In this document: piece after piece, positions 2,928 to 22,463 of the stretch
Position numbering within the stretch: the stretch's first letter is position 1
Layout: each line of letters begins with the position of its first letter
Source of the DNA: a plasmid
DNA: 64,000 nt
Direction: 5' to 3' (one strand)
Sequence record: NZ_CP014527.1
Translations under genes and position numbers: made by a program
Notes under the pieces: model-generated
The model's input: only the letters and a program-made list of their open reading frames with translations
Told to the model about the DNA's origin: nothing
Database searches by the model: none

Positions 2928-3176
2928 CTACGAGGTGGCCCGCGTTCCGACCGGATCCGGCACAGCGTTGTTTGCCGCTTCAACAGGACCGGGTTCCCGG
3001 CTGTCGGCACGTGAATCGAGCAGAATCATCTCACCGGATCCGGCGGTCAGGATAATTTCTGTGGCATACCGGTCCCGGCCGTCAGCATCCGTCCATTTCC
3101 GGGTCTGCAACTGGCCTTCGATATACACACGTGATCCGCTTGCGCAGATACTTCCCGGCCACGACACGGCGCCCAC
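2928..3176 (-). pseudogene. ssb: ssb (single-stranded DNA-binding protein) remnant
   Basis: '[29 protein letters not shown]' matches the conserved OB-fold core of bacterial SSB. No N-terminal half and no acidic DDDIPF tail. GTG-initiated ORF preceded by an in-frame stop. Confidence 0.4.
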
Positions 3177-3189
3177 CGGACTTCACAGT

Positions 3190-3490
3190 CAATGACAACA
3201 CAATGGAATGTCAAAGCGCGTGAAACAGGGACCCATCTCGCAAGACGGGACAGGAGACATGTATAACCACGAACAGGGATGCAAACGAGTTTGGCGAGTG
3301 TTTATGCGCCAGTCTCAAAGAATCTCGAAGTTTCTCAGAGAATCTCCAAGAATCTCAAAGTTTCTACGTCGTACCCACCGGCAGGATAGAGGAGGTGGGC
3401 CCACCTCCTGTCCTCATTCGATGAGGATGCTTGTTCGCACGGTCCGGCCGTGCTCAACGCAAGCGTGAGAAAGAGGGAGCTTTTTAACCG
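3190..3490. repeat. ~300-bp noncoding repeat element, copy 1 (second copy 9060-9366)
   Basis: ~75% identity over the first half and ~95% over 3355-3490 vs 9231-9366. Contains an 11-bp-periodic direct repeat array (3301-3365). Contains a perfect 20-bp palindrome aggaggtgggcccacctcct (3390-3409). Contains a second hairpin gcacggccgggccgtgc. Confidence 0.7.
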
Positions 3491-3615
3491 GACGACAGGC
3501 TGTTTTTTGGACGACGGACTCTTGCACAAAACATGTTATTATAGTAACGACTTTTATTTAGCGCGTTTAAGTAGAAAGTATCGCGCATCCTACCGGGAAA
3601 CTTAGGAGAAAACCC

Positions 3616-4626
3616 ATGGCAAACCTAGTATCGGCCTTAGGCCAAACCAAGGCAAATCATGATGCTACAAATGACACTCTGTACGGCGTAGGCGGAGACG
3701 GAGATGACAGGCTCGAGGGAGGTAGGGGAAATGACTTCCTGTATGGTGGTGCAGGAGACGACGCCCTGCACGGCGGAGACGGAGACGACCGTCTGTCCGG
3801 CGGATATGGAGACGACACCCTGAATGGTGGGGAGGGAGATGACAAGCTCGAGGGAGGTGAGGGGAATGATACCCTCTATGGAGGGTTTGGCAGTGATGTC
3901 TTGGATGGCGGTAGGGGAAATGATCACCTGTATGGTGGCGCAGGAGACGACACCCTGTACGGCGGAGACGGAGACGACATCCTGAATGGTGGGGAGGGAG
4001 ATGACAGGCTCGAGGGAGGTAGGGGAAATGACTTCCTGTATGGTGGTGCAGGAGACGACGCCCTGCACGGCGGAGACGGAGACGACCGCCTGTACGGCGG
4101 AGACGGAGACGACCGCCTGCACGGTGGAGGCGGAGACGACATCCTGAATGGTGGGGAGGGAGATGACAGGCTCGAGGGAGGCGAGGGGAATGATATCCTC
4201 TATGGAGGGTTTGACAATGATGTCCTGGATGGCGGTAGGGGGAATGACTTCCTGTATGGTGGCGCAGGAGACGACACCCTGTACGGCGGAGACGGAGATG
4301 ACATCCTGTATAGCGGGTCCGGTAATGATACCTTGTATGGTGGGGCAGGTGCCGACCAATTTATCTACACGTCGACATCATTGGGCAGCGATGTTGTACT
4401 GGATTTCAATGCTGCAGAAGGAGATCGTATCCGTCTTGATATTGAAACCTCATCTGGCACGCGTCTGACATGGAGCGACAGTGGGCCGCAAAAACTGTCA
4501 ATGTGGGCCGAGCCATCTGATGGAGGTATGGTTCTGCGCGCTGATATTGACTGCAATACTGATGCAGATATCAGTATCAACCTGCAAGGCGTTTCTGATC
4601 TGGGGCCAGATGCCTTGATTCTCTAA
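3616..4626 (+). CDS. RTX (repeats-in-toxin) calcium-binding protein, hemolysin-type GGxGxDxUx nonapeptide repeats
   Basis: ~35 tandem 'GGxGNDxLxGGxGDD' nonapeptides. ~300-bp internal duplication at DNA level (3715 vs 4015). Non-repeat C-terminal ~90 aa consistent with a type I secretion signal. Confidence 0.85.
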
Positions 4627-4749: not shown

Positions 4750-4890
4750 TTAACCCCGGCGCGAAAATCTTCAGTCACCAGAGCCAGGGAGGGGGGCGAA
4801 TATTCGCTGAGCTGTCCGGCATAGCCGCGCCCGTCAACGAACAGGTTGATATTTTTCAGAACGTCGCGCGCGGCCATCAGTGAAAGGCCT
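4750..4890 (-). pseudogene. P2-like phage major tail tube protein (FII family) N-terminal fragment
   Basis: 'LKNINLFVDGRGYAGQLSEYSPPSLALVTEDFRAGV' matches the FII tail-tube N-terminus pattern (LNLFxDGxxYxG...TEDYRAGG). The ORF then continues into unrelated sequence. Confidence 0.4.
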
Positions 4891-5047
4891 CCTTGATCGG
4901 GGGCGAGGTTTGCCGCGCCCCCGATCAATTTATTTTTCCCCGTCGTAAAAACGGCCGTTTATGCAGATGGTAGAACACGCTGGCGCGAAAGAATTGCGTA
5001 TTTTTAACTGGAATATGGGAGAAGCCTGATTGCAGGCTACACCGATC

Positions 5048-5323
5048 TTATTCGTCGAAAAGATCGGTGTGCCGTCCAGTTCGTTCAAAGCGGACAACAT
5101 TGCCATTGATTTTGTAGATCAGAAGCCAGTCCGACTCAATGTGGGCATCCCGGTAGCTACGCCACCGCCCTTTAAGCGGGTGGTCGAGATACGTGGCAGG
5201 CAACGGCGTACCTGCTATCAGCAGCTCTATCAGAACCTTGAGCTTGCTCATGTCCTTGCCACGCCTTCCAGAAGCCTTGACGTCACGCTTGAACTGGCCA
5301 GAATACTCCGGGTGCCGCATCAA
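5048..5323 (-). CDS. yafQ: Type II toxin YafQ (RelE/ParE superfamily mRNA interferase)
   Basis: 91 aa. 'EYSGQFKRDVK...DHPLKGRWRSYRDAHIESDWLLIYKI...RFERTGRHTDLF' is collinear with E. coli YafQ. 4-nt overlap with the upstream antitoxin gene. Confidence 0.85.
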   Translation of the reverse strand: MMRHPEYSGQFKRDVKASGRRGKDMSKLKVLIELLIAGTPLPATYLDHPLKGRWRSYRDAHIESDWLLIYKINGNVVRFERTGRHTDLFDE

Positions 5324-5580
5324 ATACCCAGCTGGGCAAACAGATCATCCGCATCGTTGGCATGGTGAACATCTTCACCATGCTCACTTTTCGCCAGCGT
5401 TTCCGCCGTCAGTGCGTTAGGAACGCGCATGTCGAATGGCAGCGTCTTTTCTTTGGCGATTTTGGTGAGGGCAATGCGCACTACATCGGACACAGTAAGC
5501 CCCATACCCGCCAGTACGGCAGCGGCTTCGTTTTTTAGCGTCTCGTCGATCCGGGCGCGGACAAATGCATTTGCTTTCAT
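5320..5580 (-). CDS. dinJ: Type II antitoxin DinJ (RelB/DinJ family)
   Basis: From internal Met: 'MKANAFVRARIDETLKNEAAAVLAGMGLTVSDVVRIALTKIAKEKTLPFDMRVPN...DADDLFAQLGI', collinear with E. coli DinJ. Confidence 0.85.
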   Translation of the reverse strand: MKANAFVRARIDETLKNEAAAVLAGMGLTVSDVVRIALTKIAKEKTLPFDMRVPNALTAETLAKSEHGEDVHHANDADDLFAQLGI

Positions 5581-5804
5581 GGGACGCCTTGGTTCCATTG
5601 GGAGCCTCGCATTCAGGGTGAGATAACACTGTAGCTCAAATGAACCACTTTTGCAAGGCACCTCTTTTTAACCATCTCTTTCTTTTTTTCAGCCACTTGA
5701 CGCACAGCTTTCAGCATATATACGAAAGAACAACGTCCTTGACGTTCAGATTATTTTAACTGATATAAGATGTCATCTTAATATTAAAAAAGGATCTGAA
5801 TGAG

Positions 5805-6446
5805 ATGATAATAACGGTTGGTAATACAAAAGGTGGCGTGGGCAAAACTACGATATCGGTTAATTTGGCGGTCGCCCGCGCATTGTCCGGTCGCGATGTA
5901 TGGTTGATTGATGGTGACCGACAGGGTACGGCGCAAACTGCAATCAGTATCCGGGCTGAAGCGGGGTACGCTCCGGGGATTGCTTGTGCCACTTATCCGG
6001 ATGGCCCGACATTGCGGTCACAGGTTCAGCAACAGGCATCCAGATTTAATGATGTGATTATCGATGCTGGCGGACGTGACTCAACTGCATTGCGTGCTGC
6101 CCTTGTACTGTCTGATGTGCTTCTGGTTCCATTCCAGCCTCGGAGTTATGACGTGTGGGCACTCAACGATATTGCGGCACTGGTTGATGAGGCCAGAAGT
6201 GTGCGTGATGGTCTGCGGTGCTTTGCCGTTCTTAATTGCGCCGATCCGGGCGAGCATTCAACAGACAACATAGAAGCTGCCGCTGCGGTCGCTGAAGTTC
6301 CCCAATTTGAATACCTCCCAACTCCTTTGCGTCGTCGCAAAGCTTTTGCTAATGCCGCAGGTTCGGGGCAAAGCGTTCTTGAATTGAGGCCGCAGGATCA
6401 CAAGGCGACAGCCGAGGTAAATAACCTTATTAACGCATTGTTTTAA
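5805..6446 (+). CDS. parA: Plasmid partition ATPase ParA (Walker-type, type Ib)
   Basis: Deviant Walker A 'GNTKGGVGKTTISVNLA'. 213 aa, typical of small ParA/ParF-like proteins. Confidence 0.85.
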   Translation: MIITVGNTKGGVGKTTISVNLAVARALSGRDVWLIDGDRQGTAQTAISIRAEAGYAPGIACATYPDGPTLRSQVQQQASRFNDVIIDAGGRDSTALRAALVLSDVLLVPFQPRSYDVWALNDIAALVDEARSVRDGLRCFAVLNCADPGEHSTDNIEAAAAVAEVPQFEYLPTPLRRRKAFANAAGSGQSVLELRPQDHKATAEVNNLINALF

Positions 6447-6485
6447 TATTAAAAAGATATCTAAATAGAGTTGTAAGGGGTTTAA

Positions 6486-6752
6486 ATGGCTATTACGAAG
6501 AAACCAGTCAAGCCTGTTGCAGGTTCATCCTTTGCCCCTGTCGATGCCTTTATCTCAGGTGCTCCGGATGCTGATCAGGGGCCGCGTCGTGTCCGCAAGG
6601 GACGCAAGGTCCAGATTACACTAACAATCACAGAACCCTTGTTGGCTCGCGTGGATGAGCTGGCCGGACATCTTGGGCAAAGCAGGGCCGCTGTGATTAA
6701 TCTGGCTGTTATGCAGATGCTTCAAACAGGCTTGCGTATTGATGGCGAATAA
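6486..6752 (+). CDS. ParG-like ribbon-helix-helix partition protein (centromere-binding partner of ParA)
   Basis: 88 aa, immediately downstream of parA. Disordered basic N-terminus followed by a CopG/RHH-like C-terminus 'VQITLTITEPLLARVDELAGHLGQSRAAVINLAV'. Confidence 0.5.
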   Translation: MAITKKPVKPVAGSSFAPVDAFISGAPDADQGPRRVRKGRKVQITLTITEPLLARVDELAGHLGQSRAAVINLAVMQMLQTGLRIDGE

Positions 6753-6869
6753 TCTGCCTTCGCGTGTTGCCTTGTCTTCCTTGAAGAAGCAGAAAAAAAT
6801 AACGTTTCTGCGCTGAATGCATTTCTGACGCCATGCCAATACCACCCGGCATGGCGTTCTGATTCAGAT

Positions 6870-8576
6870 TCAGACCGTTTTCTTTTTCTGTTTTGCCTTT
6901 GCCTTTGCCGGTTTTGGTATGTCTTTCAGCTCGACCGTGGCGGCCCTCGACCATGGCTCGGGGATCAGGTCCCATGGCATGATGGCGGTGTTGAGCTTCA
7001 GCAGTTCAGGCACGTTGATATCAGCCGTGCACCAGAGGCGGACCGGCTCGTCATCGGCATTGCGTTCCACATGAACAAGCAGCCGGTTGATACAGGTGCG
7101 CACAAGAACGGTGGACAGGCCGTCGGACGGATCGTGCTTCAGGCGGGCCAGAAGGCGTTTCCAGCGGTTCAGGCTTTCGTTGGCAAGGTCGGTGCGGAAA
7201 ATCAGCTTGTCCAGTTCCCGCTGGTGCGTATAGAGCTGAAGGCGTGCGTTGGTGATCTGCTTTTCCTTGTCGTCCAGAAAGGACCGGATGACGGGGCGGT
7301 TGGTCCGGTTTCCGAGATCGGACAGCAGTGCCTTGACCTCATCTGTTGCCTGGTCGATCTGTTGTTGCAGCCGTTCAATGGCGCTTTCGTGGCGTTGCCG
7401 GTCCGGTGAAAGCGTCTCCTGAAAGGTGCGGATGGTGTCCAGATCAACCGTATTCAGCGCCTCCAGACCTTGGACAATGATGGTTTCGCGCGGGATCATC
7501 CACAAGGCGGTCCGGCGTGATCCATAATAACCCGGCGGGGCGGCGGTCAACGGGTGGCCGGTTTCGGCGCACCGCAAGCGGCGCGTGAAGAACCAGCTTC
7601 CGGTCTGGCCGGTCTTCATCTGGAGCGAGCGGGCCTTGCGCTGGCGTTCCATCGCCCGTTCCCGGCTGCGGGCCTTGGCATCGGCGGCGCGGATATGACG
7701 CATGGAAGACCGGTCTTCAATCATGCGCTGGACCGCATCGAACAGGTCCTCGTCCACAATCGCGAGCTCCGGAACCGGTATCCGCAGCCATTCACTTTGA
7801 GGCCGCACAACACAGTTCCGTTTTCCGGTTTCGGGATTGACCCGGTATTCCTGCCGGTTCCAGGTGATCCAGCCTTTGTACAACGTATGGCGCAGGACGC
7901 CGGTTTGCCGGGACGCCGTTCCGACCAGAGCGGATATGGACCACGTTCCGCCACGCGGCGATGCAATGCCGTCGTCGTTCAGGCCTTCACAGATTTCACT
8001 CAAGATCGCGCCGTCATGGTACTCGCTGTAGATACGCCGGATGACCTCCGCCTCCCCCGGATGAATCTCGCGCTCGCCACGGACCAGTTCGCCTTTTTCA
8101 TCCAGGCGGTGTTTGGTGCGATAGCCATAGCACAAGCCGCCGGGGATCTTCCCGCGCAGCGTGATGGCCCGCAACCCGCGCCGGGTCTTGTCGGCAAGGT
8201 CCCGCAGGTACAGCGCGTTCATCGTGCCTTTCAGACCGATATGCAGCTCGTTGATGGTGCCGTCCGCGATGGTTTCAATATCGATCCCCATGAAGCGCAG
8301 TTTCTCGTACAGCGCGGCGATATCGGACTGGCTGCGGGACAGGCGTGACAAGTCCTCGCTCAACACTTTCTCGAATTCACCGGCCAGGGCGGCGGCAACC
8401 AGCGCCTTGGCATTCTCGCGGTGGGACATGGTGGCTCCTGACAACGCCTCGTCGGCGAAAATGTGGGATACCGTCCACCCCCGGTCTGCGCAAAACTGGA
8501 TACACCGGGCCACCTGATCGGCGCTGGATGTGTCCTGTTTGTCGGTGCTGTGGCGCGCGTAAATGGCGACCAGCAT
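6870..8576 (-). CDS. Large serine recombinase (resolvase catalytic domain + recombinase domain + C-terminal coiled-coil)
   Basis: 'MLVAIYARHSTDKQD' catalytic Ser motif. ~570 aa with a long C-terminal extension. Start taken at the internal Met of ORF 6870..8615. Confidence 0.8.
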   Translation of the reverse strand: MLVAIYARHSTDKQDTSSADQVARCIQFCADRGWTVSHIFADEALSGATMSHRENAKALVAAALAGEFEKVLSEDLSRLSRSQSDIAALYEKLRFMGIDIETIADGTINELHIGLKGTMNALYLRDLADKTRRGLRAITLRGKIPGGLCYGYRTKHRLDEKGELVRGEREIHPGEAEVIRRIYSEYHDGAILSEICEGLNDDGIASPRGGTWSISALVGTASRQTGVLRHTLYKGWITWNRQEYRVNPETGKRNCVVRPQSEWLRIPVPELAIVDEDLFDAVQRMIEDRSSMRHIRAADAKARSRERAMERQRKARSLQMKTGQTGSWFFTRRLRCAETGHPLTAAPPGYYGSRRTALWMIPRETIIVQGLEALNTVDLDTIRTFQETLSPDRQRHESAIERLQQQIDQATDEVKALLSDLGNRTNRPVIRSFLDDKEKQITNARLQLYTHQRELDKLIFRTDLANESLNRWKRLLARLKHDPSDGLSTVLVRTCINRLLVHVERNADDEPVRLWCTADINVPELLKLNTAIMPWDLIPEPWSRAATVELKDIPKPAKAKAKQKKKTV

Positions 8577-8655
8577 GACGTTTCCTCCGGTCTGTGTCGT
8601 ATGTATACACGACATTTAACCGGTTGACGGGCAACGGGGAAAGGGCGGATGACGA

Positions 8656-8988
8656 TCAGGGGGTGTTGGCAGCCTGTGCAGCGGCTTCGGCTTCACGGCG
8701 GCGCTTGACCCGGATAATCTTGCGGGCGATGCGGTAAACATCTCCCCAGATCTCGTCGACAGAAACCGCAGGATCGGTGTCACGACCGTCCCAGCCCATG
8801 GCAACCGCCGTCCCGACATCAACGCGGGGCGGCAGAAGTTCAGGCGGAATATGGGCGATGATCTCATCCATGCTTGGCACAATGTCGTCATAGTCATCGG
8901 CGTCTTCCGGTGAAACGGTCAGCCAGTCCACACCATGAAAGATACCGTTGCCTATGAAAGGCAGGCCTTCGTTGTCCTGTACGCTGCT
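8656..8988 (-). CDS. Hypothetical protein (acidic, upstream of and co-oriented with the large serine recombinase)
   Basis: ORF 8656..9069 from internal Met 'MSSVQDNEGLPFIGN'. No recognisable domain. Confidence 0.35.
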   Translation of the reverse strand, partial: SSVQDNEGLPFIGNGIFHGVDWLTVSPEDADDYDDIVPSMDEIIAHIPPELLPPRVDVGTAVAMGWDGRDTDPAVSVDEIWGDVYRIARKIIRVKRRREAEAAAQAANTP

Positions 8989-9059
8989 CATTGCTGTTGT
9001 CCTTTCCTGGATACAGTGCGGGGGTGCGCAACCAGATACCCCAGCCTTCACAGCTAGCG

Positions 9060-9366
9060 ACAACATCATGAAATGTCAATGCAGGTATGGAGAGTAAAAG
9101 CCATGTAAAGGGGAAATAGACGGTATGTATAACTGCGAACAGTGGTGCAAATGAAATTGGCAAGTATCTAAGTGGTATTCTACGAGTTTCTACGAGTTTC
9201 CAAAAGTTTCTACGAGTTTCTACGAGTTTCCAAAAGTTTCTACGTCGTACCCACCGGCAGGATAGAGGAGGTGGGCCCACCTCCTGTCCTCATTCCATGA
9301 GGATGCTTATTCGCACGGCCGGGCCGTGCTCAACGCAAGCGTGAGAAAGGGGGAATTTTTTAACCG
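9060..9366. repeat. ~300-bp noncoding repeat element, copy 2 (see 3190-3490)
   Basis: 11-bp periodic array 'gtttctacgag'/'gtttccaaaag' x7 (9171-9245). Perfect palindrome aggaggtgggcccacctcct (9266-9285). Ends exactly at the Tn3-family repeat at 9366. Confidence 0.7.
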
Positions 9367-9403
9367 TTTCCGTCTCAGAAAACGGAAAATAAAGCACGCC
9401 AAG
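9366..9403 (+). repeat. Tn21-subgroup (Tn3-family) 38-bp terminal inverted repeat, IR-1 (outer 5 bp divergent)
   Basis: 'gtttccGTCTCAGAAAACGGAAAATAAAGCACGCcAAG' vs Tn21 IR GGGGTCGTCTCAGAAAACGGAAAATAAAGCACGCTAAG. Inner 33 bp match almost perfectly. Outer GGGGT replaced. Confidence 0.7.
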
Positions 9404-9569
9404 CCGACGTCGGTAACCACGGCGACGGTACCCGGAGACGACAGGGTTCGGGTTCGGGCGTGGGCTGAAAGGCAGGCTTCAACAGGTTTTGCGAAAAACA
9501 TGCTCACTTGGTTGCGTGGACATGATTTCTGCCTAAAAGGTCCGTCTCTGGATGCGGTTTTTCTTCCTG

Positions 9570-9597
9570 TGGAAAGGAAACTTTGCTATTCTTTCCA
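9570..9597 (+). promoter_or_regulatory. Palindromic putative operator upstream of the Xre-RES toxin-antitoxin operon
   Basis: tggaaag-N14-ctttcca inverted repeat 28 bp upstream of the antitoxin start. TA operons are typically autoregulated through such sites. Confidence 0.25.
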
Positions 9598-9624
9598 TAG
9601 GCAGACAAGAGAGGCCCTACCATC

Positions 9625-10008
9625 ATGACGCGGGCACCCAAGTCAGAAACACACCAGCCTGATGCAAGTGCTGTTCTGACCAAAGCTGTGATCCGGGCGG
9701 CGGATTATCTGGATATTCCGGCAACCGTGCTGGCAAGAATTCTGGGGCTCAGCGAGCCCACCATATCCCGCATGCGCAAGGGATCCTTTTTTCTTTCAAC
9801 AAAAAAGAAAGAATCCGAGATCGGCGTACTGTTTGTGCGTCTTTTCCGGTCTCTGGACGCGCTGGTCGGAGGAGACCAGGCCAGTGCACGGGCGTGGTTG
9901 ACCAATGTGAATACGGTCCTGCTGGATCGTCCGCTCAACCAGATACAAACCATAAACGGACTGTACAATGTCATTGCATACTTGGACGCCCGCCGCGCTG
10001 TCATCTGA
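9625..10008 (+). CDS. Xre-like HTH antitoxin of RES-Xre (ParS/MbcA-like, DUF2384-type) toxin-antitoxin pair
   Basis: 127 aa. 'AVLTKAVIRAADYLDIPATVLARILGLSEPTISRMRKG' HTH. Upstream of and overlapping a RES-domain gene. Confidence 0.75.
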   Translation: MTRAPKSETHQPDASAVLTKAVIRAADYLDIPATVLARILGLSEPTISRMRKGSFFLSTKKKESEIGVLFVRLFRSLDALVGGDQASARAWLTNVNTVLLDRPLNQIQTINGLYNVIAYLDARRAVI

Positions 10009-10744
10009 GTTCCGGTCTTTTACGGGGTTGTGCTGGCGTCTGGTGGAGTGCCAGCACTACGTTTCGACGCTGAAAATAGTCGACAGCCTTGAAGAGCAGC
10101 GCATTCTGGAAATGTTGGTAGAAGAAACAAAGCCACCGCTGCCCCCGGAATGTCAAAGCCTGCATTTCCTTCTGTCCACGCCTTTCCGGTATGACCCGGC
10201 GTATCCAAAGGGTTCCCGGTTCCGGCGGGCCGGACGCACGCCGGGTGTCTATTACGCCGCCATGGAGCCTGAAACCGCCGTTGCCGAGATCGCTTTCTAC
10301 CGGGTCCTGTTTTTTGCGGAATCCCCGGGTACACCATGGCCGGTCAACCCGGCTGAATACACCGCCTTTGCGGTCGACGTGGAAAGCCGAAGCGTTGTTG
10401 ACCTGACATCCCTGCCGTTGTCACAGGGGCGGGCGGTCTGGACGGACCCGGTGAACTACGAACCGTGTCAGGCGCTGGCAGAAACGGCCAAGCAGGCGGG
10501 GGCCGGGATGATCCGGTATGAATCGGTGCGTGACCCGCGTGGCCGGCATAATCTCGCCCTTATGACCTGTCAGGCGTTCAGGGGCGGACAACCGGCACAT
10601 TGCCAGACATGGCGGATCCTGCTCAGTCACGTCGGGGCCCAAGCTCTGTGTGAGTTTCCACAGGTGTATTTAGCTTTTGATCGGGATGAATTCTCGTCAG
10701 ACCCGCGCCTGAACGGGATGGACTGGAAACGGCCTTCCCGGTAA
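9968..10744 (+). CDS. RES-domain toxin (ParT/MbcT-like NAD+-targeting toxin); true start probably downstream of 9968
   Basis: Downstream partner of the Xre antitoxin. Conserved Arg/Glu/Ser-containing segments (e.g. 'RFRRAGRTPGVYYAAMEPETAVAEIAFYRV', 'IRYESVRD'). The 41-nt overlap with the antitoxin suggests an internal GTG/TTG start near 10030-10046. Confidence 0.7.
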   Translation: MSLHTWTPAALSSEFRSFTGLCWRLVECQHYVSTLKIVDSLEEQRILEMLVEETKPPLPPECQSLHFLLSTPFRYDPAYPKGSRFRRAGRTPGVYYAAMEPETAVAEIAFYRVLFFAESPGTPWPVNPAEYTAFAVDVESRSVVDLTSLPLSQGRAVWTDPVNYEPCQALAETAKQAGAGMIRYESVRDPRGRHNLALMTCQAFRGGQPAHCQTWRILLSHVGAQALCEFPQVYLAFDRDEFSSDPRLNGMDWKRPSR

Positions 10745-11194
10745 ACCAAAGAGAAACCCTAGATTGTGTTGGTGACCTACCACCCACGGCCCTTTCCCAG
10801 CACTTTTCCCATCGCGTCAACCACATTCATGCCCATCGGCCCGGTTGCGGCCTGTCCGGTGAGGTAGAGCCGCCAGTTCCTGGCCTGTGACGGAAGAAGC
10901 TGGTTCTGGCGGATGGCAAGGTAGCGACGCCAGCGATGATCGGACAGGAGGCCGCGTCCGGCCAGCGGACGCAGGCGATAACGACGGACGGGCTGGCCCG
11001 TCCGGATCTTGTTCCTGGCGATATGGGCAGGATCACGGTAGGAACCAAGGCGTTTCTCCAGCGCACCACGGCTGCACGTACGGTCAAGCGCACTGGCTTT
11101 CATGTGGGGTGGCTTGCTGGTGTCGGAATCAAGCGGACGGAACACCAGGCCACGGCCGCGCTGGACAAGAACAACGCCGAACCGGTCTGCCAGC

Positions 11195-11263
11195 CTCTGG
11201 CGCAGCCGCGTCAAGATCGGCACTGGCAAGTTCAGGCCGCTACGACCACTGAAACCGTCTTAG
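11195..11263 (+). pseudogene. tnpA: Tn21-like tnpA 3'-terminal relic (last ~22 codons)
   Basis: Translates to 'LWRSRVKIGTGKFRPLRPLKPS*', matching the TnpA C-terminus pattern ...LWRSSAKIGAGKFRPLRPLQPA*. Stop codon lies inside IR-2. Confidence 0.5.
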
Positions 11264-11296
11264 CGTGCTTTATTTTCCCTTTTCTGAGACGACCCC
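11259..11296 (-). repeat. Tn21-subgroup (Tn3-family) 38-bp terminal inverted repeat, IR-2
   Basis: Reverse complement ggggtcgtctcagaaaagggaaaataaagcacgctaag has 37/38 identity to the Tn21 IR. Inverted relative to IR-1, so IR-1/IR-2 bracket 1.93 kb carrying the RES-Xre pair. Confidence 0.85.
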
Positions 11297-11297
11297 T

Positions 11298-11386
11298 ATC
11301 AACCTGACCGGAGATTACCTGTGGCGCAGCAGCGCCAAGATCGGCGCAGGCAAATTCAGGCCACTACGACCGCTACAGCCGGCTTA
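11298..11386 (+). pseudogene. tnpA: Tn21-like tnpA 3'-terminal relic (last 29 codons)
   Basis: Translates to 'INLTGDYLWRSSAKIGAGKFRPLRPLQPA*', the C-terminal peptide of Tn21-subgroup TnpA (recalled from memory). Begins immediately outside IR-2. Stop codon TAG inside IR-3. Confidence 0.8.
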
Positions 11387-11420
11387 GCGTACGATTTTTT
11401 CCGTTTTCTGAGACGACCCC
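11383..11420 (-). repeat. Tn21-subgroup (Tn3-family) 38-bp terminal inverted repeat, IR-3 (IRtnp-type end)
   Basis: Reverse complement ggggtcgtctcagaaaacggaaaaaatcgtacgctaag. Preceded by the tnpA 3' relic exactly as at a Tn21 IRtnp end. Confidence 0.8.
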
Positions 11421-11547
11421 AAGTTGTCGCATTGTTCCGTTTTGTGGTTAAAAAACAATGCTTGGCGGGATAAACACACGAAACCCCGCTTGCAATTTAT
11501 CGGCGATGCCTCATAATGCTGCAGATTGCATTATTTCAGGGGCTAGA

Positions 11548-11742
11548 ATGACCGCCAAACACCGTATAACCATCAACATGACTGAGGCGGAATATACCGC
11601 CCTTGCGGCTCTGGCTGAACGGTTTCAAGTTTCAATGGCATGGCTTGGCCGCCGTGCTTTGGGTGAGATGGTAGAAAAATACAAACACGCAGGGCAACTC
11701 ACCATGCCCTTTGACGCAACACCGCCAAAGGAAAAATCATGA
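11548..11742 (+). CDS. Ribbon-helix-helix (CopG/Arc-like) DNA-binding protein, candidate controller of the downstream R-M operon
   Basis: 'MTAKHRITINMTEAEYTALAALAERFQVSMAWLGRRALGEMV' shows a beta-strand-helix-helix pattern. Stop codon overlaps the methyltransferase ATG (ATGA). Confidence 0.55.
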   Translation: MTAKHRITINMTEAEYTALAALAERFQVSMAWLGRRALGEMVEKYKHAGQLTMPFDATPPKEKS

Positions 11743-13382
11743 GAGCCAGCGCACTTGCCCCCGTTGTTCACCCACAATCAACCCGCCGGATAAATCTGCC
11801 GCTCAAAAAACCTACGCTTGAAACACCAACGCAGCTGGCCGACCGCATCGGCCAAAACTACACCAACCAAAAAAACGCCGAACACCGCAAAAGCCACGGG
11901 CTTTATTTAACCCCGCCGCCAGTGGCTGCCTTTATGGCAGATATGATCTGCCCCCGTGATACGCTACGCCTGCTTGATCCCGCCGCCGGTGCTGGCATTT
12001 TACTTTGCGCGGCCATCGAGCGGCTGGCCGCCTGCCCCAACCCGCCGCGTTTGGTTGAGATTGTCGCTTATGAAATTGATCCACCGTTAGCGGCCATGCT
12101 GGCCGAGGTTCTCGACCATCTAACCGCTTGGGCCGCTGGCAAGGGCATGACGATCAAAACCACAATCCGCTGCACTGATTTTATTTTGGCCGAGGCCGCC
12201 GCCCTGCATCATCGCCCCGCTAATCGCTTCGATGCCGTCATTGCTAACCCGCCTTATTTTAAGATCAACAAAGATGACCCCCGCGCCGTTGCGGCTTGTG
12301 ATGTTGTGCATGGTCAGCCCAATATCTATGGCCTGTTCATGGCTGTTGCCGCCGCGATGCTGAGTCAAGGCGGCGATCTGGTATTTATCACCCCGCGTAG
12401 CTTTGCATCAGGCCCTTATTTTAAGCGATTCCGCGAACGGTTTTTTTCAATGGTGCGACCGCTTAGAACTCATGTTTTTGCTTCCCGCCGCGATGCCTTT
12501 AGCCGCGATGCAGTGCTGCAAGAAAATGTTATCCTACATGCAATCCGCGCCGATGGATGGACAACCAAGCCCAACGGCCTGCCCTTCACAATTTCCAGCA
12601 GCACCGGCATGGGCGATCTTGACCAAGCCACCGAATACCCAGCCGCCTTAGCCGATGTAATCGACCCTAAAAATTTGGCTGGTGCTTTCCGTTTACCCTC
12701 AGGCCCCGAAGATGAAGACATTTTGCGCCGTGTGGACAGTTGGACAGGCTCACTTCATGCTTATGGGTTGGATATTTCCACCGGCCCCGTGGTGCCATTC
12801 CGCGCCACAGAACATCTAGCCGAGCAAGCTAATGGCGTAACCGTTCCCTTGTTGTGGTTAAACCATGTCAAGGCGATGGAGATTCAATGGCCGACCGCTA
12901 GCCGTAAACCGCAATACATTAAAAACAAAACCAATTCCCAACGCCTGCTTGTGCCAAACAGCACTTACATTCTGTTGCGCCGATTCAGTGCCAAGGAAGA
13001 GCACCGCCGCATGACCGCAGCCCCCTTGCTGGCCGGTCAGATTCCAGCCGCCATGATCGGTATTGAAAACCATCTAAACTATATTCACCGACCAGGCGGC
13101 AACATCAGCGATGATGAAGCCTTTGGCTTGGCCGCTTTGCTCAACAGCGCATTGATGGATGGGTATTTTCGTTGCACCAACGGCAATACCCAAGTCAGTG
13201 CCACCGAATTACGCGCCATGCCTTTGCCGCCCTTAGCCGCTATCGCCCAGCTTGGCCGCCGCGTCAGAAAAAAACCCGACAACATGGCTTTAATTGATGA
13301 TTTGGTTGAGGCGTTGACGCACAACCCCGATCAAATCAAGGTTAAAACGACCGAAAAACAAAAAGGAGAAGCCTTTGCCTGA
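11739..13382 (+). CDS. N6-adenine DNA methyltransferase, gamma-class (M.PstI/M.BsuBI / Eco57I-type family)
   Basis: AdoMet motif I 'LLDPAAGAGILLCAAIERL' precedes motif IV 'VIANPPYFKINKDD' (NPPY). 547 aa, close to M.PstI/M.BsuBI (~500 aa). Followed by a BsuBI/PstI-family REase gene. Confidence 0.85.
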   Translation: MRASALAPVVHPQSTRRINLPLKKPTLETPTQLADRIGQNYTNQKNAEHRKSHGLYLTPPPVAAFMADMICPRDTLRLLDPAAGAGILLCAAIERLAACPNPPRLVEIVAYEIDPPLAAMLAEVLDHLTAWAAGKGMTIKTTIRCTDFILAEAAALHHRPANRFDAVIANPPYFKINKDDPRAVAACDVVHGQPNIYGLFMAVAAAMLSQGGDLVFITPRSFASGPYFKRFRERFFSMVRPLRTHVFASRRDAFSRDAVLQENVILHAIRADGWTTKPNGLPFTISSSTGMGDLDQATEYPAALADVIDPKNLAGAFRLPSGPEDEDILRRVDSWTGSLHAYGLDISTGPVVPFRATEHLAEQANGVTVPLLWLNHVKAMEIQWPTASRKPQYIKNKTNSQRLLVPNSTYILLRRFSAKEEHRRMTAAPLLAGQIPAAMIGIENHLNYIHRPGGNISDDEAFGLAALLNSALMDGYFRCTNGNTQVSATELRAMPLPPLAAIAQLGRRVRKKPDNMALIDDLVEALTHNPDQIKVKTTEKQKGEAFA

Positions 13383-14316
13383 TATTCACCAAGCCCAAGA
13401 TATTCTAAAAAGTCTTGGCCTACCAGCCGCACAGCAGAATGAAATTTCCGCGCTAACCTTGCTGGCTCTTGTCGGGCTAGGCCCAACTGATCCTTGGTCA
13501 GCGGCTACCCGCAGCCGCCGCAGCGTATCAAAAGACATCATGGCTTTTATCGCCGAGCGTTTCGGTAAACACTATGCGCCCAACACCCGTGAAACCGTGC
13601 GGCGGCAAGTGTTGCATCAATTCGTGCAAGCCCGTATCGCCGATTATAACCCGTTCGAGCAGGACTTGCCGACCAATAGCCCCCGCGCTCATTACGCCAT
13701 CACCGATGATGCGTTGAGCGCAATTAAAACCTATGGCACAAAAGCATGGGCCGATGCCGTGGCACAATTCATTGCTACACACGGTTCACTTTCCAACACC
13801 TATGCAAAACACCGATCCACCGGAAAGCTGGTTCCAATCACTTTGCCGGACGGCAGCACCATTGAACTATCGCCCGGCAAGCATAATGACGTACAGAAAG
13901 CCATTATCGAGCAATTCGCGCCGCGTTTTGCGCCTGATTCCAAGCTGCTTTATATCGGCGACACCGCTAAAAAGAATGTCATAATGGATGCCAAAACCTT
14001 GGCCGATTTTGGCCTTGGTGCCGATGACCACGATAAATTGCCGGATGTGGTATTACTCGACCAAAAGAAGAATTGGTTGTTTCTAATTGAAGCGGTAACA
14101 TCACATGGCCCTATGTCACCCAAGCGCGTATTCGAGCTTGAGGAACGGTTAAAGGGCAGCCAAGCTGGGCCAGTTTATGTTAGCGCATTCCCAGATATGG
14201 CCGAGTTTCGTAAACACATGAAAGATATTGCTTGGGAAAGCGAAGTCTGGATTGCTGAAACACCGGATCACATGATCCATTTCAATGGCGATAGGTTTTT
14301 AGGGCCGAGAAAATAG
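13375..14316 (+). CDS. Type II restriction endonuclease, BsuBI/PstI family
   Basis: 313 aa, the size and position expected for R.PstI/R.BsuBI. TTG start 4 nt after a strong SD 'aaaaggagaa'. Overlaps the MTase stop. Family call rests on synteny plus overall similarity recalled from memory, not a computed alignment. Confidence 0.7.
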   Translation: MPDIHQAQDILKSLGLPAAQQNEISALTLLALVGLGPTDPWSAATRSRRSVSKDIMAFIAERFGKHYAPNTRETVRRQVLHQFVQARIADYNPFEQDLPTNSPRAHYAITDDALSAIKTYGTKAWADAVAQFIATHGSLSNTYAKHRSTGKLVPITLPDGSTIELSPGKHNDVQKAIIEQFAPRFAPDSKLLYIGDTAKKNVIMDAKTLADFGLGADDHDKLPDVVLLDQKKNWLFLIEAVTSHGPMSPKRVFELEERLKGSQAGPVYVSAFPDMAEFRKHMKDIAWESEVWIAETPDHMIHFNGDRFLGPRK

Positions 14317-14349
14317 GCACCGACTATCAAAACGCGGAGAGGCTATATC

Positions 14350-15051
14350 ATGGCAAGATGTACAGCACCAGTATATGGCCACCGCACATCGAGCGGGGCA
14401 GCTGCCTGCCCCGCATGTAATGGACGCTATAGAAGCTATACCTCACACTCATATTCACCGCCGCCGCCTTACTTCACCACCACAACAGTGAGCAATTGGG
14501 GTGGCCGAAGCAGCGGAAGTAGTTCTGGCAGCAGCGGAAAGGTTCGCTGGTCTCGGCCAGGTTCGTCCGTGATGTACACGCCTGCCCAGATACGGACGCT
14601 CACGCCTGTCCGTGAAAACATCGAAAACAAAACGTCCGTTCTCGATCTTCGGGACGTTTTTCTTTGCCATGCGTGGGACGACAGGAAAGGGGCTGCCAAG
14701 GAACTGCATGATCTGCTCCAGTCGCTCGGGGTATCGGTCTGGTTCAGCGAGAAGGATGTAGCCCTCGGCACTTCGTTGCTCCGCGAAATCGACAAAGGAT
14801 TGGTGAAGTCCCGAGTCGGGATCGTACTAGTGACCCCAGCACTGTTGCGTCGCATTCAAGGAGAGGGAATCGCCGACAAAGAGCTTTCGGCACTACTAGC
14901 GCGTGACCTGCTTGTTCCTGTTGTGCATGAAACCACGTATGACGCCCTCCGAGAAGTTAGCCCACTGCTCGGTTCGCGAAGCGGCCTGAGCACCGCAGAA
15001 GAGCCGATGGCAGACATTGCGGCCAAGCTCGCTGAACTAGTCGCCCCCTAG
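14350..15051 (+). CDS. TIR-domain protein (bacterial Toll/interleukin-1 receptor-like, putative NADase effector) with N-terminal Cys-x2-Cys and Ser/Gly-rich linker
   Basis: TIR core 'DVFLCHAWDDRKGAAKELHDLLQSLGVSVWFSEKDVALGTSLLREIDKGLVKSRVGIVLVTPALL' with the conserved catalytic Glu context (WFSE). SD 'GGAGAGG' 7 nt upstream. Starts 33 bp after the REase stop. Confidence 0.8.
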   Translation: MARCTAPVYGHRTSSGAAACPACNGRYRSYTSHSYSPPPPYFTTTTVSNWGGRSSGSSSGSSGKVRWSRPGSSVMYTPAQIRTLTPVRENIENKTSVLDLRDVFLCHAWDDRKGAAKELHDLLQSLGVSVWFSEKDVALGTSLLREIDKGLVKSRVGIVLVTPALLRRIQGEGIADKELSALLARDLLVPVVHETTYDALREVSPLLGSRSGLSTAEEPMADIAAKLAELVAP

Positions 15052-15129
15052 ATTGAATGCCCCAACAGTATAATTAAACAAGACCCCCACGAGGCCACGG
15101 ATGCAAAATTCCAAACTTAGGATTCACGC

Positions 15130-15339
15130 ATGATTGTCGTTATGGACAAAGAAGGCACACTTCATATTGAAGACGAAAATGGTAATGCTATGGACGGTTG
15201 CCGCATTAGTGCCACGAGATTCGATGAAACTTATATTGATGGCCTTTATGGCCGAAAATATTTTCCGGCCACCATGTGGGCGACCGTGGTTCGCAAAGGT
15301 GGTAAATATCGTGAGGTAAAAGTTACGCAAAAGAAATAG
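15130..15339 (+). CDS. Small hypothetical protein (69 aa) in a locally AT-rich segment
   Basis: AGGA 8 nt upstream of ATG. Followed by a 9-bp-stem hairpin cctaaaaac-ccac-gtttttagg (15349-15370). ~42% GC vs ~59% around it. No known domain. Confidence 0.4.
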   Translation: MIVVMDKEGTLHIEDENGNAMDGCRISATRFDETYIDGLYGRKYFPATMWATVVRKGGKYREVKVTQKK

Positions 15340-15390
15340 CTATGACGTCCTAAAAACCCACGTTTTTAGGATATTGGCCACCCTGCCCCG

Positions 15391-15424
15391 CTGTGAGCTT
15401 GATCGCTAAATGGCTTTGAATTTT
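15391..15424 (+). repeat. 33-bp inverted repeat (partner copies at 16301-16333 and 20345-20377 in opposite orientation)
   Basis: gatcgctaaatggctttgaattttgattgctat is the exact reverse complement of atagcaatcaaaattcaaagccatttagcgatc found at 16301 and 20345. Confidence 0.75.
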
Positions 15425-15429
15425 GATTG

Positions 15430-16011
15430 CTATCTGGCGTGCTCGGTGCGTGTGAGGGTGCGGTACACGGTCGGCCTGGAGACGGAGAACAGCTCGGCCA
15501 GATCGCTGATGCTGTAGTCACCGGTATCGTACATCCGCCGCAACTCGCATTGCTGCCGTTCGGAGAGCTTGGGCTTCTTGCCGCGTAGTTTGCCCTTGGC
15601 GCGGGCTACCGCCATGCCCTCGCGGGTTCGTAGCCGGATGATGTCCGACTCAAACTCCGCAAAGGTAGCGAGGATATTGAAGAACATCTTCCCCATGGGG
15701 TCGGTCGGGTCATAGATGGACGCGCCCAAGGCCAGTCGTACCTTGCGCTCCGTCAAGGTGTCGGCGATCTCCCGTGCATCGAGGACCGAGCGTGCGAGGC
15801 GGTCGAGCTTCGTGATGACCAGCGTGTCACCCGCCCTCACGGCCGCAAGCGCCTGGTCGAGACCGGGCCGTGTGCGTGTGCGCCCGGTCAGCCCCTGATC
15901 CGTATAGATGCGATCCGGAGCAACACCGAGTTCGACGAGGGCATGACGCTGCGCAGCAAGGTCTTGCTTGTCAGTAGAGCAGCGCGCGTAACCAATCGTA
16001 ATATTCTTCAT
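15430..16011 (-). CDS. Small serine recombinase (resolvase/DNA-invertase family, Tn3 TnpR/Hin-like)
   Basis: 193 aa. 'IGYARCSTDKQDLAAQ' catalytic Ser motif. C-terminal HTH 'YSISDLAELFSVSRPTVYRTL'. Confidence 0.85.
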   Translation of the reverse strand: MKNITIGYARCSTDKQDLAAQRHALVELGVAPDRIYTDQGLTGRTRTRPGLDQALAAVRAGDTLVITKLDRLARSVLDAREIADTLTERKVRLALGASIYDPTDPMGKMFFNILATFAEFESDIIRLRTREGMAVARAKGKLRGKKPKLSERQQCELRRMYDTGDYSISDLAELFSVSRPTVYRTLTRTEHAR

Positions 16012-16014
16012 GTC

Positions 16015-16100
16015 ATAAGATGTACGTTAGACGTACCGTTACTGCAATTTTTATCGTACCATTCAATTGATAAAGAAAACCTCCCGTTATTTACCGATAT
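16015..16100. promoter_or_regulatory. Putative recombinase binding/res-like region upstream of the resolvase gene
   Basis: Palindrome gtacgttagacgtac and additional 'cgtacc' half-site repeats within 90 bp of the recombinase start codon. Serine resolvases typically autoregulate from res. Confidence 0.3.
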
Positions 16101-16127
16101 GTGTACTGAGTGGGTTTATGATGATGA

Positions 16128-16345
16128 ACCGTCCGCACAACGATCCTCTTACGGACAATCTCACAGACTTCTCTGAAGAACAGCGCAGCCAGGCAATGCG
16201 CCGGTTTGCGCTTCTCCGGCCGCATCAATGAACTCGCCATGATCACTGAAGATGTCGTCGATGCCGCAGGACAGGCCCTCGTCATCGGGAACGCCAAATA
16301 GCAATCAAAATTCAAAGCCATTTAGCGATCAAGGTCACAGGTATC
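16128..16345 (+). repeat. ~215-bp repeated module, copy 1 (copy 2 at 20175-20390), ending in the 33-bp IR
   Basis: Near-identical to 20175-20390 from 'acaatctcacagacttctctgaag...' through '...gccatttagcgatcaaggtcaca'. In copy 1 the left 15-bp hairpin arm is absent and the 16-bp central spacer is inverted relative to copy 2. Confidence 0.75.
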
Positions 16346-16377
16346 TCGAAACCGGACCGGCTTGTAAATGGCCGTTT

Positions 16378-17421
16378 TTACGGCCGGCCCTGCTTCTCAT
16401 AGCGCCGCCGGCAGAAGGCGAGGAAGGCCGCATTCGGATCACGCAACGGCGGTCGGCCGGAGTCATCCCAGAACGACAGCCATTCGCTCTTCAGGTGATA
16501 CACATCCCAGCCAGGCGCGGCCAAGCGCGCATCGTGATACACATCGTCATCGAGCTGAGGAATGTCACGGGAGGACAGGGCTTCAATCGCCTTAATCGTC
16601 GCGCGGTTAGTGAACAGGATCATATCGCCGTCTTCCAGGCTCACTGTGTAATCCGGCAGATGGTTTGTCCGCGCCAAATCCTTCAGCAGATAGCGAAACT
16701 GCTTCAGCAAGCTCTTGGAGCCTGTTTTCTTGTGCAAAAGCTCGATGCTGATCGACCAGCTCGGCTGGCGACCGCAATGCTTGCGGGCGATCTCATAGAT
16801 GCGCCGTTCAAGCGGTTTGCGCAGCCGGAAATAATCCCGATGCAGCGTCAGGCATTCATTCTGATTGACCGCATTGAAGACCCAATCTGATAGGGTGATC
16901 TCACACCAGAGCAATCTACCATCGAGGCCGAATTTACGCGCGACCGAGGCGGAATCAATCAAGCCGAAGGCGCTGAATTGCTCTTCATCGCCTCGCTTGA
17001 TATTTGTGCGAATGCGCGTCCCATCGAGGCGATCAAGGGCTTCACACATCGCCTCATAATCCTTTCCGGACGTGCCGCGATTGGTGAACATCAGCAATTC
17101 GCGCGCGGTGATCCGCACCCGCTTGGAAATGGCTTCGCCCTTGTTCTTTTTCGCAATAAGCTGCGAAATGCAATAGATCAAAATATCCTTGTCATAGATG
17201 GTTGCCAGGCCTTTAACGCTTGGCACAATCTCGATCCAGTTGCCGTTATGCTCATAGCGCCTGACCGTGGTTTCAGGCTTCTTGGACAGAGAATAGAATG
17301 GGTGTTCCATCTGCGCGACCAAATCCTTCAGAACGGCGTCGGCAATATCGCAGATGAACAAGTCTCCTTGCGGATACCTGTCGGGAAGAAGGCTATCAAG
17401 ATTAGTGGTATCAGAGATCAT
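16378..17421 (-). CDS. repA: Plasmid replication initiator RepA (RPA-type 'replication initiator protein A' family)
   Basis: 347 aa. Start codon abuts an iteron array. Family assignment recalled from plasmids of alphaproteobacteria, not computed. Confidence 0.7.
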   Translation of the reverse strand: MISDTTNLDSLLPDRYPQGDLFICDIADAVLKDLVAQMEHPFYSLSKKPETTVRRYEHNGNWIEIVPSVKGLATIYDKDILIYCISQLIAKKNKGEAISKRVRITARELLMFTNRGTSGKDYEAMCEALDRLDGTRIRTNIKRGDEEQFSAFGLIDSASVARKFGLDGRLLWCEITLSDWVFNAVNQNECLTLHRDYFRLRKPLERRIYEIARKHCGRQPSWSISIELLHKKTGSKSLLKQFRYLLKDLARTNHLPDYTVSLEDGDMILFTNRATIKAIEALSSRDIPQLDDDVYHDARLAAPGWDVYHLKSEWLSFWDDSGRPPLRDPNAAFLAFCRRRYEKQGRP

Positions 17422-17624
17422 GCCCGCATATTCGTGGTATCAAAGACCGTTGTCAAGTGATTCGTGGTATCAAAGACCGTTGTCAAGTGATTCGTGGTAT
17501 CAGAGACCATGTCCGTATATTCGTGGTATCAGAGACTGACGTCACCGGCGGCCTGTAGATAACTAGGATTTCAAAGACCGTAGCCAGGATTTCAAAGACC
17601 GAGATTCGGGGTTTTAGAGACCGG
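17405..17624. promoter_or_regulatory. oriV-type iteron array upstream of repA
   Basis: Five ~30-bp-spaced repeats 'ttcgtggtatca(a/g)agac...' (17405-17547). Three copies of 'ggatttcaaagaccg'-like repeats (17566-17624). Followed by an AT-rich stretch with 3x 'ttaacac' (17676-17710). Confidence 0.8.
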
Positions 17625-20175: not shown

Positions 20176-20390
20176 TGTGAGATTGTCCGTAAGAGGATCG
20201 TTGTGCGGACAATCTCACAGACTTCTCTGAAGAACAGCGCAGCCAGGCAATGCGCCGGTTTGCGCTTCTCCGGCCGCATCAATGAACTCGCCATGATCAC
20301 TGAAGATGTCGTCGATGCCGCAGGACAGGCCCTCGTCATCGGGAACGCCAAATAGCAATCAAAATTCAAAGCCATTTAGCGATCAAGGTC
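20175..20390 (+). repeat. ~215-bp repeated module, copy 2, with intact 15/16/15 hairpin at its left end and the 33-bp IR at its right end
   Basis: gtctgtgagattgtccg-taagaggatcgttgtg-cggacaatctcacagac hairpin (20176-20225), then sequence identical to 16164-16345. Confidence 0.75.
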
Positions 20391-20492
20391 ACAACCGGCC
20401 ACGACGACACGCGGCTTCCGCGCTCTCAAAAACCACGCTTGAAACCGTGTCGGTTCTTGGTGATGTTTGCGATGAGTTTTGAGGGAGCTTCC

Positions 20493-22409: not shown

Positions 22410-22463
22410 CGGGCTTTAACAGTTCTCTTGAAATCTATCTAAATGTGTGTATATCTATTTGTT

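Follow-up and report, generated by a model that had tools for sequence, protein, structure and literature searches.

A duplicated noncoding element on a Haematospirillum plasmid is probably a diverged, orphan origin of transfer of the IncP type

A 64,000-nucleotide stretch of plasmid DNA (record NZ_CP014527.1; the whole stretch is referred to here as the window) from Haematospirillum, a genus isolated from human blood, contains a noncoding element of ~330 bp that is present twice in the same orientation, at positions 3181-3523 (copy 1) and 9046-9366 (copy 2) of a plasmid-like region. Our results suggest, with a probability that we would put at roughly 80%, that each copy is a diverged and orphan origin of transfer (oriT) of the IncP-1/RP4 (MOBP) type. 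The homology, geometry, strand and gene context of the copies lead to this reading, and from them we predict nicking, accessory-protein binding and mobilization. If it is true, the minus strand is the one transferred and transfer proceeds toward lower coordinates; an anonymous repeat then becomes a testable prediction: two transfer origins that depend on a helper and whose nick site and direction are specified. This kind of element is well known. The variant described here is divergent, duplicated and orphan and has an unusual tandem 10-bp array.

On the minus strand, both copies have the same order of landmarks: first the block CGTTGAGCAC-hairpin-GTGCGAATAAG, then an inverted repeat that ends exactly 8 nt before the nick in the motif CTATCCTG^CC (the caret marks the predicted nick), and last the 10-bp array. 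The core reads CGTTGAGCAC-GGCCCGGCC-GTGCGAATAAG-CA-TCCTCATGGAATGAGGA-C-AGGAGGTGGGCCCACCTCCT-CTATCCTG^CC-GGTGGGTACGACG-(TAGAAACTCG)n, and the RP4 oriT reads CGTTGAGCAC-CGCCAG-GTGCGAATAAG-GGACAGTGAAGAAGGAACACCCGC-TC-GCGGGTGGGCCTACTTCAC-CTATCCTG^CC-CGGCTGACG. The nick-region core, identical to RP4 over 10 nt, lies at 3380-3389 in copy 1 and 9256-9265 in copy 2, with the predicted nick between 3382 and 3381 and between 9258 and 9257, respectively; the predicted nick-spanning sequence on the minus strand contains CCTCCTCTATCCTG^CCGG and CCACCTCCTCTATCCTG^CCGGTGGG. These are the only two occurrences of the 10-mer CTATCCTGCC in the window, both on the minus strand, and in both copies TATCCTGC on that strand matches the nick consensus of MOBP systems, (C/T)ATCCTG(C/T) (PMC3772185). 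A perfect 20-bp inverted repeat, AGGAGGTGGGCCCACCTCCT (3390-3409 and 9266-9285), ends 8 nt 5' of the predicted nick in each copy, and its 18-nt core is found only at these two sites in the window, with 0.02 expected by chance. In RP4, TraJ binds a 19-bp inverted repeat that is separated from the nick by a spacer of 8 bp (PMC7314908), and this RP4-style spacing is present in both copies. The nick-side arm of the palindrome is homologous to the proximal arm of the RP4 repeat, and over the proximal arm and nick region 22 of 27 positions are identical to RP4 in a gapless alignment. At the place of the distal arm of the RP4 repeat sits a second hairpin, TCCTCAT-TCG-ATGAGGA in copy 1 (3411-3427) and TCCTCAT-TCC-ATGAGGA in copy 2 (9287-9303). 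A third hairpin, the GC-rich GCACGGY-CNG-GCCGTGC (3437-3453 and 9313-9329), is contained in the block that is conserved across the family, which runs on the minus strand as CGTTGAGCAC-hairpin-GTGCGAACAAG at 3430-3459 in copy 1 and as CGTTGAGCAC...GTGCGAATAAG at 9306-9335 in copy 2; an imperfect CTCAACGC/GCGTGAG repeat and then a T-run follow this hairpin. The conserved block lies on the 5' side of the nick, and the distance from its start to the nick is 78 nt in the Haematospirillum copies and 80 nt in RP4.

The RP4 oriT sequence given above is 100% identical to IncP-1alpha plasmids in PLSDB, between traJ and traK, and the traJ-traK interval of pBS228 served as the RP4-type comparison sequence. 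Chained local alignment to this interval gave scores of 42 for copy 2, 31.5 for copy 1 and 39.5 for a further copy from Haematospirillum sp. H1815. Dinucleotide shuffles had a mean score of 16.4 (standard deviation, 2.6) and none of 2000 reached the observed values (z = 6-10), while the wrong orientation scored 12.5-19. Six more IncP-type regions were fetched beside annotated traJ, traI or traK genes. The blocks recur in those of IncP-1beta, Sphingobium (an alphaproteobacterial plasmid), Xylella and Escherichia coli p14EC001a, where their start is 80 nt to the 5' side of the nick; these four were combined with pBS228 in an nhmmer profile (n=5) from which Haematospirillum sequences were excluded; IncP-1gamma, with no match to the nick motif, and Klebsiella, with a different site, were left out. 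The top two matches of this profile in the window are the two copies, on the minus strand in both cases: copy 2 at 9335-9243 (E 7.5e-4) and copy 1 at 3459-3366 (E 0.011). The next match has an E-value of 0.22.

Copy 1 was identified by alignment with copy 2 and with the H1815 copy, and by its homology to the RP4-type oriT. A first-pass annotation of this DNA had described two copies in the same orientation, with 3' halves ~95% identical, no conserved open reading frame spanning both, a perfect GGGCCC-centred 20-bp palindrome and a second GC hairpin followed by a T-run. Our alignments agree on each of these points: blastn pairs 3357-3490 with 9233-9366 at 94.8% identity, no open reading frame is common to both copies, and the palindrome and GC hairpin are the AGGAGGTGGGCCCACCTCCT repeat and third hairpin given above. 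The hairpin TCCTCAT-TCN-ATGAGGA, found in both copies, was absent from that description, and its figure of ~75% identity for the 5' halves was too high. Identity between copies is 94% in a 124-bp core (3367-3490 versus 9243-9366) but falls to ~57% across the array and to ~62% across the left part. The left boundary of both copies is CTTCACAG (3181 and 9046), which in copy 1 adjoins a truncated ssb pseudogene. On the trailing side, copy 2 stops after the T-run at 9366, directly before the plus-strand terminal inverted repeat at 9371-9403 (33 of 38 nt, the outer 5 nt missing) by which it is truncated, much as had been noted for a truncated Tn3-family repeat. We take this repeat to be of the Tn21/Tn1721 type, a label that is supported by Tn3-family matches for its partner repeats. 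Copy 1, in contrast to an earlier placement of its end at 3490, runs past the T-run to ~3523 through two GGACGAC-containing direct repeats (3490-3523) that it has in common with the H1815 copy and that have been removed from copy 2.

On the transferred strand, the array starts 13 nt to the 3' side of the predicted nick, which is the side that would enter the recipient first. It extends over 3309-3368 in copy 1, with ~5 units (AGAATCTC / AGTTTCTC), and over 9175-9244 in copy 2, with ~7 units (AGTTTCTACG / AGTTTCCAAA); AGWWTCY plus 3 nt is the unit common to the arrays. The period given by Tandem Repeats Finder is 10 bp, with 4.8 copies at 3313-3360 and 6.7 copies at 9178-9244, the latter with a perfect 30-bp super-repeat. 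An exact 11-bp spacing and about seven repeats in each copy, as previously described, are therefore not what we find. Both arrays are predicted to be curved by a dinucleotide wedge model, of which only relative values are trustworthy: their curvature is 31-32 degrees, compared with a window median of 9.7, and lies at the 99.9th percentile of the window, with the curved stretch 47-95 bp 3' of the nick. The array is also the curvature maximum of the 8-kb H1815 locus. In RP4, the traJ promoter is on the leading side of the nick, as is an intrinsically curved stretch of ~200 bp that TraK wraps (PMC7314908), and for the RP4 locus the wedge model peaks on the TraK side, 75 bp 3' of the nick, in agreement with this published region. 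By analogy, the array is most likely phased curved DNA and a wrapping or binding platform for an accessory protein of the TraK/StbA type. The earlier suggestion of an "origin-like site" with phased protein-binding repeats thus pointed in the right direction, but the site would be an origin of transfer, acting on the opposite strand, rather than a replication origin or a centromere.

A centromere for a ParG-like protein had indeed been proposed, and the arrays could be imagined as a partition centromere or operator bound by a ParA/ParG-like pair, the copies flanking the par locus like parC1 and parC2 of pB171 par2. A ParA gene (5805-6446) and a gene for an 88-aa ribbon-helix-helix protein (6486-6752) do lie between the two copies, and centromere-binding proteins of such pairs use short direct repeats, arranged in arrays, as their sites. 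Partition proteins can also bind oriT regions (PMC12421886). We nevertheless regard such a function as very unlikely. The arrays are 2.3 kb from parA, their unit sequence differs between the copies, other strains have one copy only, and the homology to the RP4 oriT would be left unexplained. The motif that flanks parA, TTAATATTAA, is unrelated to AGWWTCY. This motif occurs at 5778-5787, just upstream of parA, and at 6443-6452, just upstream of the ribbon-helix-helix gene, and is the likely operator or centromere motif of this type Ib partition pair.

The probability that the element is an iteron replication origin, or a single-strand initiation (ssi) or promoter signal of the Frpo type, appears to be negligible. 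Direct repeats beside hairpins, with ssb and ardC as neighbours, would fit such a signal, and Rep binding and an origin-like site were among the earlier proposals. However, the RepA gene (RPA family by Pfam; 16378-17421, minus strand) has its own iterons directly upstream, at 17430-17536, and a period of 10 bp is far below known iteron length. As single-stranded DNA the whole elements fold no better than shuffled sequences (z -0.6 and -1.1) and lack a long hairpin. The iterons beside repA, 3.6 copies of the 30-bp ATTCGTGGTATCAAAGACCGTTGTCAAGTG, are the probable replication origin. A rolling-circle replication origin was rejected as no Rep gene was found for it, antitoxin repeats of type III were rejected because 10 nt is too short, and an attP/res site of the serine recombinase was rejected because the three palindromes are mutually unrelated and the main one has a centre that is itself a palindrome.

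Copies of the element outside the window are few. A scan of one genome per species with the palindrome returned one true extra copy, that of H1815, and two chance matches. The H1815 copy has the same core, but its array consists of 8 units that are mixed differently; both the number of units and their composition therefore vary (5, 7 and 8 units across copies). Contigs of Haematospirillum jordaniae strains carry copy 2 in the same context and share the window only from 4890 to 18951, which indicates that the copy 1 region is strain-specific. The count of copies proposed in the first-pass annotation has yielded further examples in H1815 and H. jordaniae and none in PLSDB, where blastn with the element (three queries, E up to 10) gave chance matches only, among them matches in Sulfitobacter that were inspected and dismissed. 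There were 0 matches in two metagenome scans and 0 in a viral scan with the hairpin pattern. A viral scan with the array pattern gave 49 matches, which, judged from the locus table alone, are probably generic tandem repeats and were set aside.

The genes that accompany an IncP-type oriT are largely missing. A cognate relaxase and TraJ/TraK genes were not found beside the oriT in the window or in the H1815 or H. jordaniae loci. What is present is a remnant of a MOBP relaxase, a 150-aa open reading frame on the minus strand (10777-11229) situated 1.4 kb from an element copy, which matches positions 215-308 of 502 in the NCBIfam profile NF041893, TraI/MobA(P) (E 1.1e-13), and Pfam TraI_middle (29.6 bits; cut-off, 27.6). 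A homologue search with this remnant returned only the same protein from H. jordaniae. Its proximity, together with the ssb and ardC genes, typical of conjugative plasmids, that flank copies of the element, was counted as context for the oriT reading. Since there is no traJ, traK or intact relaxase, both copies would be orphan oriTs in need of a helper in trans, and the DNA is probably movable between bacteria only via a helper plasmid. Adjacency to relaxase and accessory genes is typical of the IncP-type family but is not needed for function in trans. Mobilization of orphan oriTs in trans is well documented (PMC7755788).

Several observations weigh against an oriT. The E-values obtained with nhmmer are modest. 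The Rfam family traJ-II (RF01760), a covariance model of the IncP oriT and traJ leader that scores 85-113 bits on all seven IncP-type loci, fails at its threshold here: copy 1 reaches 16 bits, with a gathering threshold of 40, and copy 2 is unlisted. This failure can be attributed to the absence of the nick-pairing block AUCCUGCUC and to the reorganization of the single long inverted repeat into a 10+10 palindrome and a separate 7-bp hairpin; by its sequence, the element is homologous to IncP oriTs yet is not a member of traJ-II at threshold. The CCTCGCAGAGCAGGAT block, conserved in IncP-type regions, is not present in the copies, and the exchange of a single 19-bp inverted repeat for two short hairpins means that RP4 proteins may not recognize the element. 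A relaxase N-terminal domain, TraJ, TraK and a coupling protein were not found in the window or related loci by Pfam or tblastn searches. The relaxase remnant is oriented toward the oriT and lies in a transposon-rearranged stretch bounded by Tn21-type repeats, and hence need not be the former partner. A simple sigma-70 consensus scan for divergent promoters of the traJp/traKp type found none, the evidence for curvature is computational only, and the number of known Haematospirillum copies, four, is too small to give comparative support for selection on the element.

Some of these observations would also fit a dead relic, that is, a descendant of an IncP-type oriT that no longer supports transfer and is kept as an intergenic or promoter region for the minus-strand genes. 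All known copies are without traJ, traK and traI, the sole relaxase is a fragment, the region has been heavily rearranged (the Tn21-type element, copies of an IS607-family element and the truncated ssb), and the traJ-II threshold is failed. We consider a relic unlikely all the same, because every copy retains an intact nick core, 8-nt spacing, perfect palindrome and conserved block, because these landmarks are 94-97% identical compared with ~60% in neighbouring noncoding DNA and because an orphan oriT can be mobilized in trans, as noted above.

The weak traJ-II match of copy 1 also bears on whether the element could be a structured RNA, either a small RNA of ~220 nt, as had been suggested, or a leader resembling the traJ 5' untranslated region that traJ-II describes. 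Three consecutive hairpins and a T-run would suit an RNA, and the RP4 traJ mRNA starts 24 nt from the nick, so that the oriT is transcribed there (PMC7314908). However, neither traJ nor another conserved open reading frame lies downstream, simple consensus scans detected no promoter or terminator, and the folds have z-scores of only -1.5 and -1.8 relative to shuffles. Differences between the copies fall in loops, in G-U pairs or in a broken pair, with no compensatory changes, and the partner for the outer helix of traJ-II is absent. An Rfam search of the whole window, a check put forward in the first-pass annotation, gave no match at gathering thresholds; matches at relaxed thresholds, among them that of copy 1 to traJ-II, were not significant. 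An RNA function is thus extremely improbable.

For the oriT reading, RP4 provides the model of how the element may work. A TraJ-like accessory protein would bind the inverted repeat, and a MOBP relaxase would cut the minus strand 8 nt further on, after CTATCCTG, between 3382 and 3381 in copy 1 or between 9258 and 9257 in copy 2. The relaxase would then pilot the strand 5' to 3' into the recipient, with the array first, followed by the truncated ssb in the case of copy 1 or by a gene for a 111-aa protein and a serine recombinase gene in the case of copy 2. The 10-bp array would take the place of the curved TraK-binding region and traJ promoter of RP4. Since 5,876 bp separate the two directly repeated copies, transfer that starts at one of them and ends at the other could, speculatively, release the intervening segment. 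A bolder extension of this idea, which we hold to be quite unlikely, is that the two orphan oriTs bound a transferable module of 5,876 bp, a minimal mobilizable cassette in which the array, by docking an accessory protein, specifies the helper. A helper relaxase would start at copy 2, terminate at copy 1 and deliver a circle, which the serine recombinase could integrate; the cassette would contain the 111-aa gene, the large serine recombinase, the ribbon-helix-helix protein, ParA, RelB/YafQ and the RTX gene. The variable array, with 5, 7 or 8 units, would serve as the docking platform of the accessory protein that sets helper specificity.

Copy 2 and the H1815 copy share their left-hand neighbours: on the minus strand the 111-aa gene and a large serine recombinase gene, and beyond these the ribbon-helix-helix protein and ParA. 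In the window, the 111-aa gene (8656-8991, minus strand), which encodes an orphan acidic protein, is the gene nearest to copy 2 on its leading side, and the recombinase gene (6870-8615, minus strand) is next. Homologues of the 111-aa protein were found only in Haematospirillum and on one metagenome contig, BLASTP against RP4 TraK gave nothing, and a single-sequence AlphaFold model was unusable (predicted local distance difference test score, 50). A conserved TTGACA on the minus strand, resembling a -35 box, lies ~80 bp upstream of this gene in copy 2 (9074-9079) and at the far leading-side end of copy 1 (3209-3214), with a poor -10. The leading-side end of copy 1 coincides with the truncation point of the ssb pseudogene (2928-3178, minus strand), which matches positions 66-98 of 104 in the Pfam SSB profile, has lost ~50 N-terminal codons and has a frameshift near 3140 and an atypical C-terminus. 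On the trailing (right) side, a gene for a 336-aa RTX-repeat protein (3616-4626) adjoins copy 1 and ardC adjoins the H1815 copy. A type I secretion pair (HlyD/ABC) is encoded at 24703-28094, just past the second IS607-family copy and ~20 kb from the RTX gene. The trailing side of the H1815 oriT (locus L001, 3347-3816) carries a ~470-nt imperfect inverted repeat that takes in the first ~100 nt of ardC together with their inverted copy. As single-stranded DNA this repeat, which is not present in the window, has a folding energy of -176.5 kcal/mol (z = -14.5 relative to shuffles); it could be a Frpo-like single-strand promoter for ardC or a simple inverted duplication.

A plasmid-type mosaic occupies the left 24 kb of the window and comprises RepA and its iterons, toxin-antitoxin pairs, a PstI-like restriction-modification system, remnants of the Tn3 family and two copies of an IS607-family element. 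The latter copies (a serine recombinase with a MerR helix-turn-helix plus TnpB/OrfB; 1-1875 and 22441-24315) are 100% identical and in direct orientation and bracket the whole plasmid-like segment that holds both oriT copies, and the window begins inside or at the first of them. The Tn21-type repeat at 9371-9403 has a right-hand counterpart of 38 bp that is tandemly duplicated together with the 3' end of tnpA (124-bp unit, 11194-11420) and so stands at both 11259-11296 and 11383-11420. Between the Tn21-type repeats there are an Xre/RES toxin-antitoxin pair and the relaxase fragment, and no transposase. A direct repeat of 188 bp, 100% identical, is present at 16152-16339 and 20206-20393, with one copy near repA.

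BLAST and Rfam traJ-II can both miss an IncP-type oriT that has diverged as far as this one, even though its nick core, its 8-nt spacing and one of its flanking blocks are kept; hence, orphan oriTs are probably under-counted. A tandem 10-bp array at the TraK/StbA position would also be a clean substrate for understanding how accessory proteins read phased repeats.

Comparison with known systems places the element closest to the oriTs of IncP-1 plasmids (RP4/RK2 and R751 types) and to other IncP-type MOBP oriTs beside traJ-traI or traK. It shares with them the nick core CTATCCTG^CC, the 8-nt spacer, the 22 of 27 identities of the proximal arm and nick region, the block CGTTGAGC..GCGAATAAG ~80 nt 5' of the nick and a curved region on the 3' (leading) side. 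It differs in the absence of flanking traJ, traI and traK and of the CCTCGCAGAGCAGGAT block, in having a perfect 10+10 palindrome and a separate 7-bp hairpin instead of a 19-bp imperfect inverted repeat, and in having a tandem 10-bp array where the leading side of IncP-1 oriTs is unique curved DNA; it is too diverged from them for blastn against PLSDB. The T-DNA borders of Ti plasmids, the substrates of the MOBP2 relaxase VirD2, share the nick core (GGCAGGATA / TATCCTGCC), but they are without the proximal inverted repeat and the CGTTGAG..GCGAATAAG block, both of which are present in the Haematospirillum element. Rfam traJ-II covers the same features, namely, the nick region, the inverted repeat and the CUUAUUCGC...UCAACG hairpin; the window copies, however, score at most 16 bits against 40, lack the partner of the outer helix and have rearranged inner helices.

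Repeats near the nick have counterparts elsewhere. The traJ-traK intervals of a 40.6-kb Klebsiella plasmid and of E. coli p14EC001a contain another nick-like site, TTATCCTG^C, which has an inverted repeat of its own (GGAAAACC..GGTTTTCC); after the site come four direct repeats, AAATACAC, 10-12 bp apart. In p14EC001a this site is present in addition to an IncP-1-like one. These sequences suggest that other MOBP oriTs, too, have short phased repeats 3' of their nick. The nearest described analogue of the array, the stbDRs of R388, two groups that each comprise five 9-bp direct repeats with a 2-nt spacer beside the oriT, are bound by StbA, a homologue of RP4 TraK (PMC3098194). Like these and the RP4 TraK region, the Haematospirillum array consists of short direct repeats about one helical turn apart, between the nick and the first leading-side gene. 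The R388 unit is 9+2 bp (TTGCATCAT) in a 2x5 arrangement, whereas the Haematospirillum unit is 10 bp (AGWWTCY+3) in a single array of 5-8 units, for which protein binding is proposed by analogy. R388 belongs to the MOBF family, whereas the present element is of MOBP type, with no StbA or TraK gene found. Finally, orphan and secondary oriTs resemble the element in lacking a cognate relaxase on the replicon and in occurring more than once per replicon (PMC7755788). The Haematospirillum case differs from them in that two diverged copies of one oriT type, as their predicted function would have it, lie in direct orientation 5.9 kb apart.

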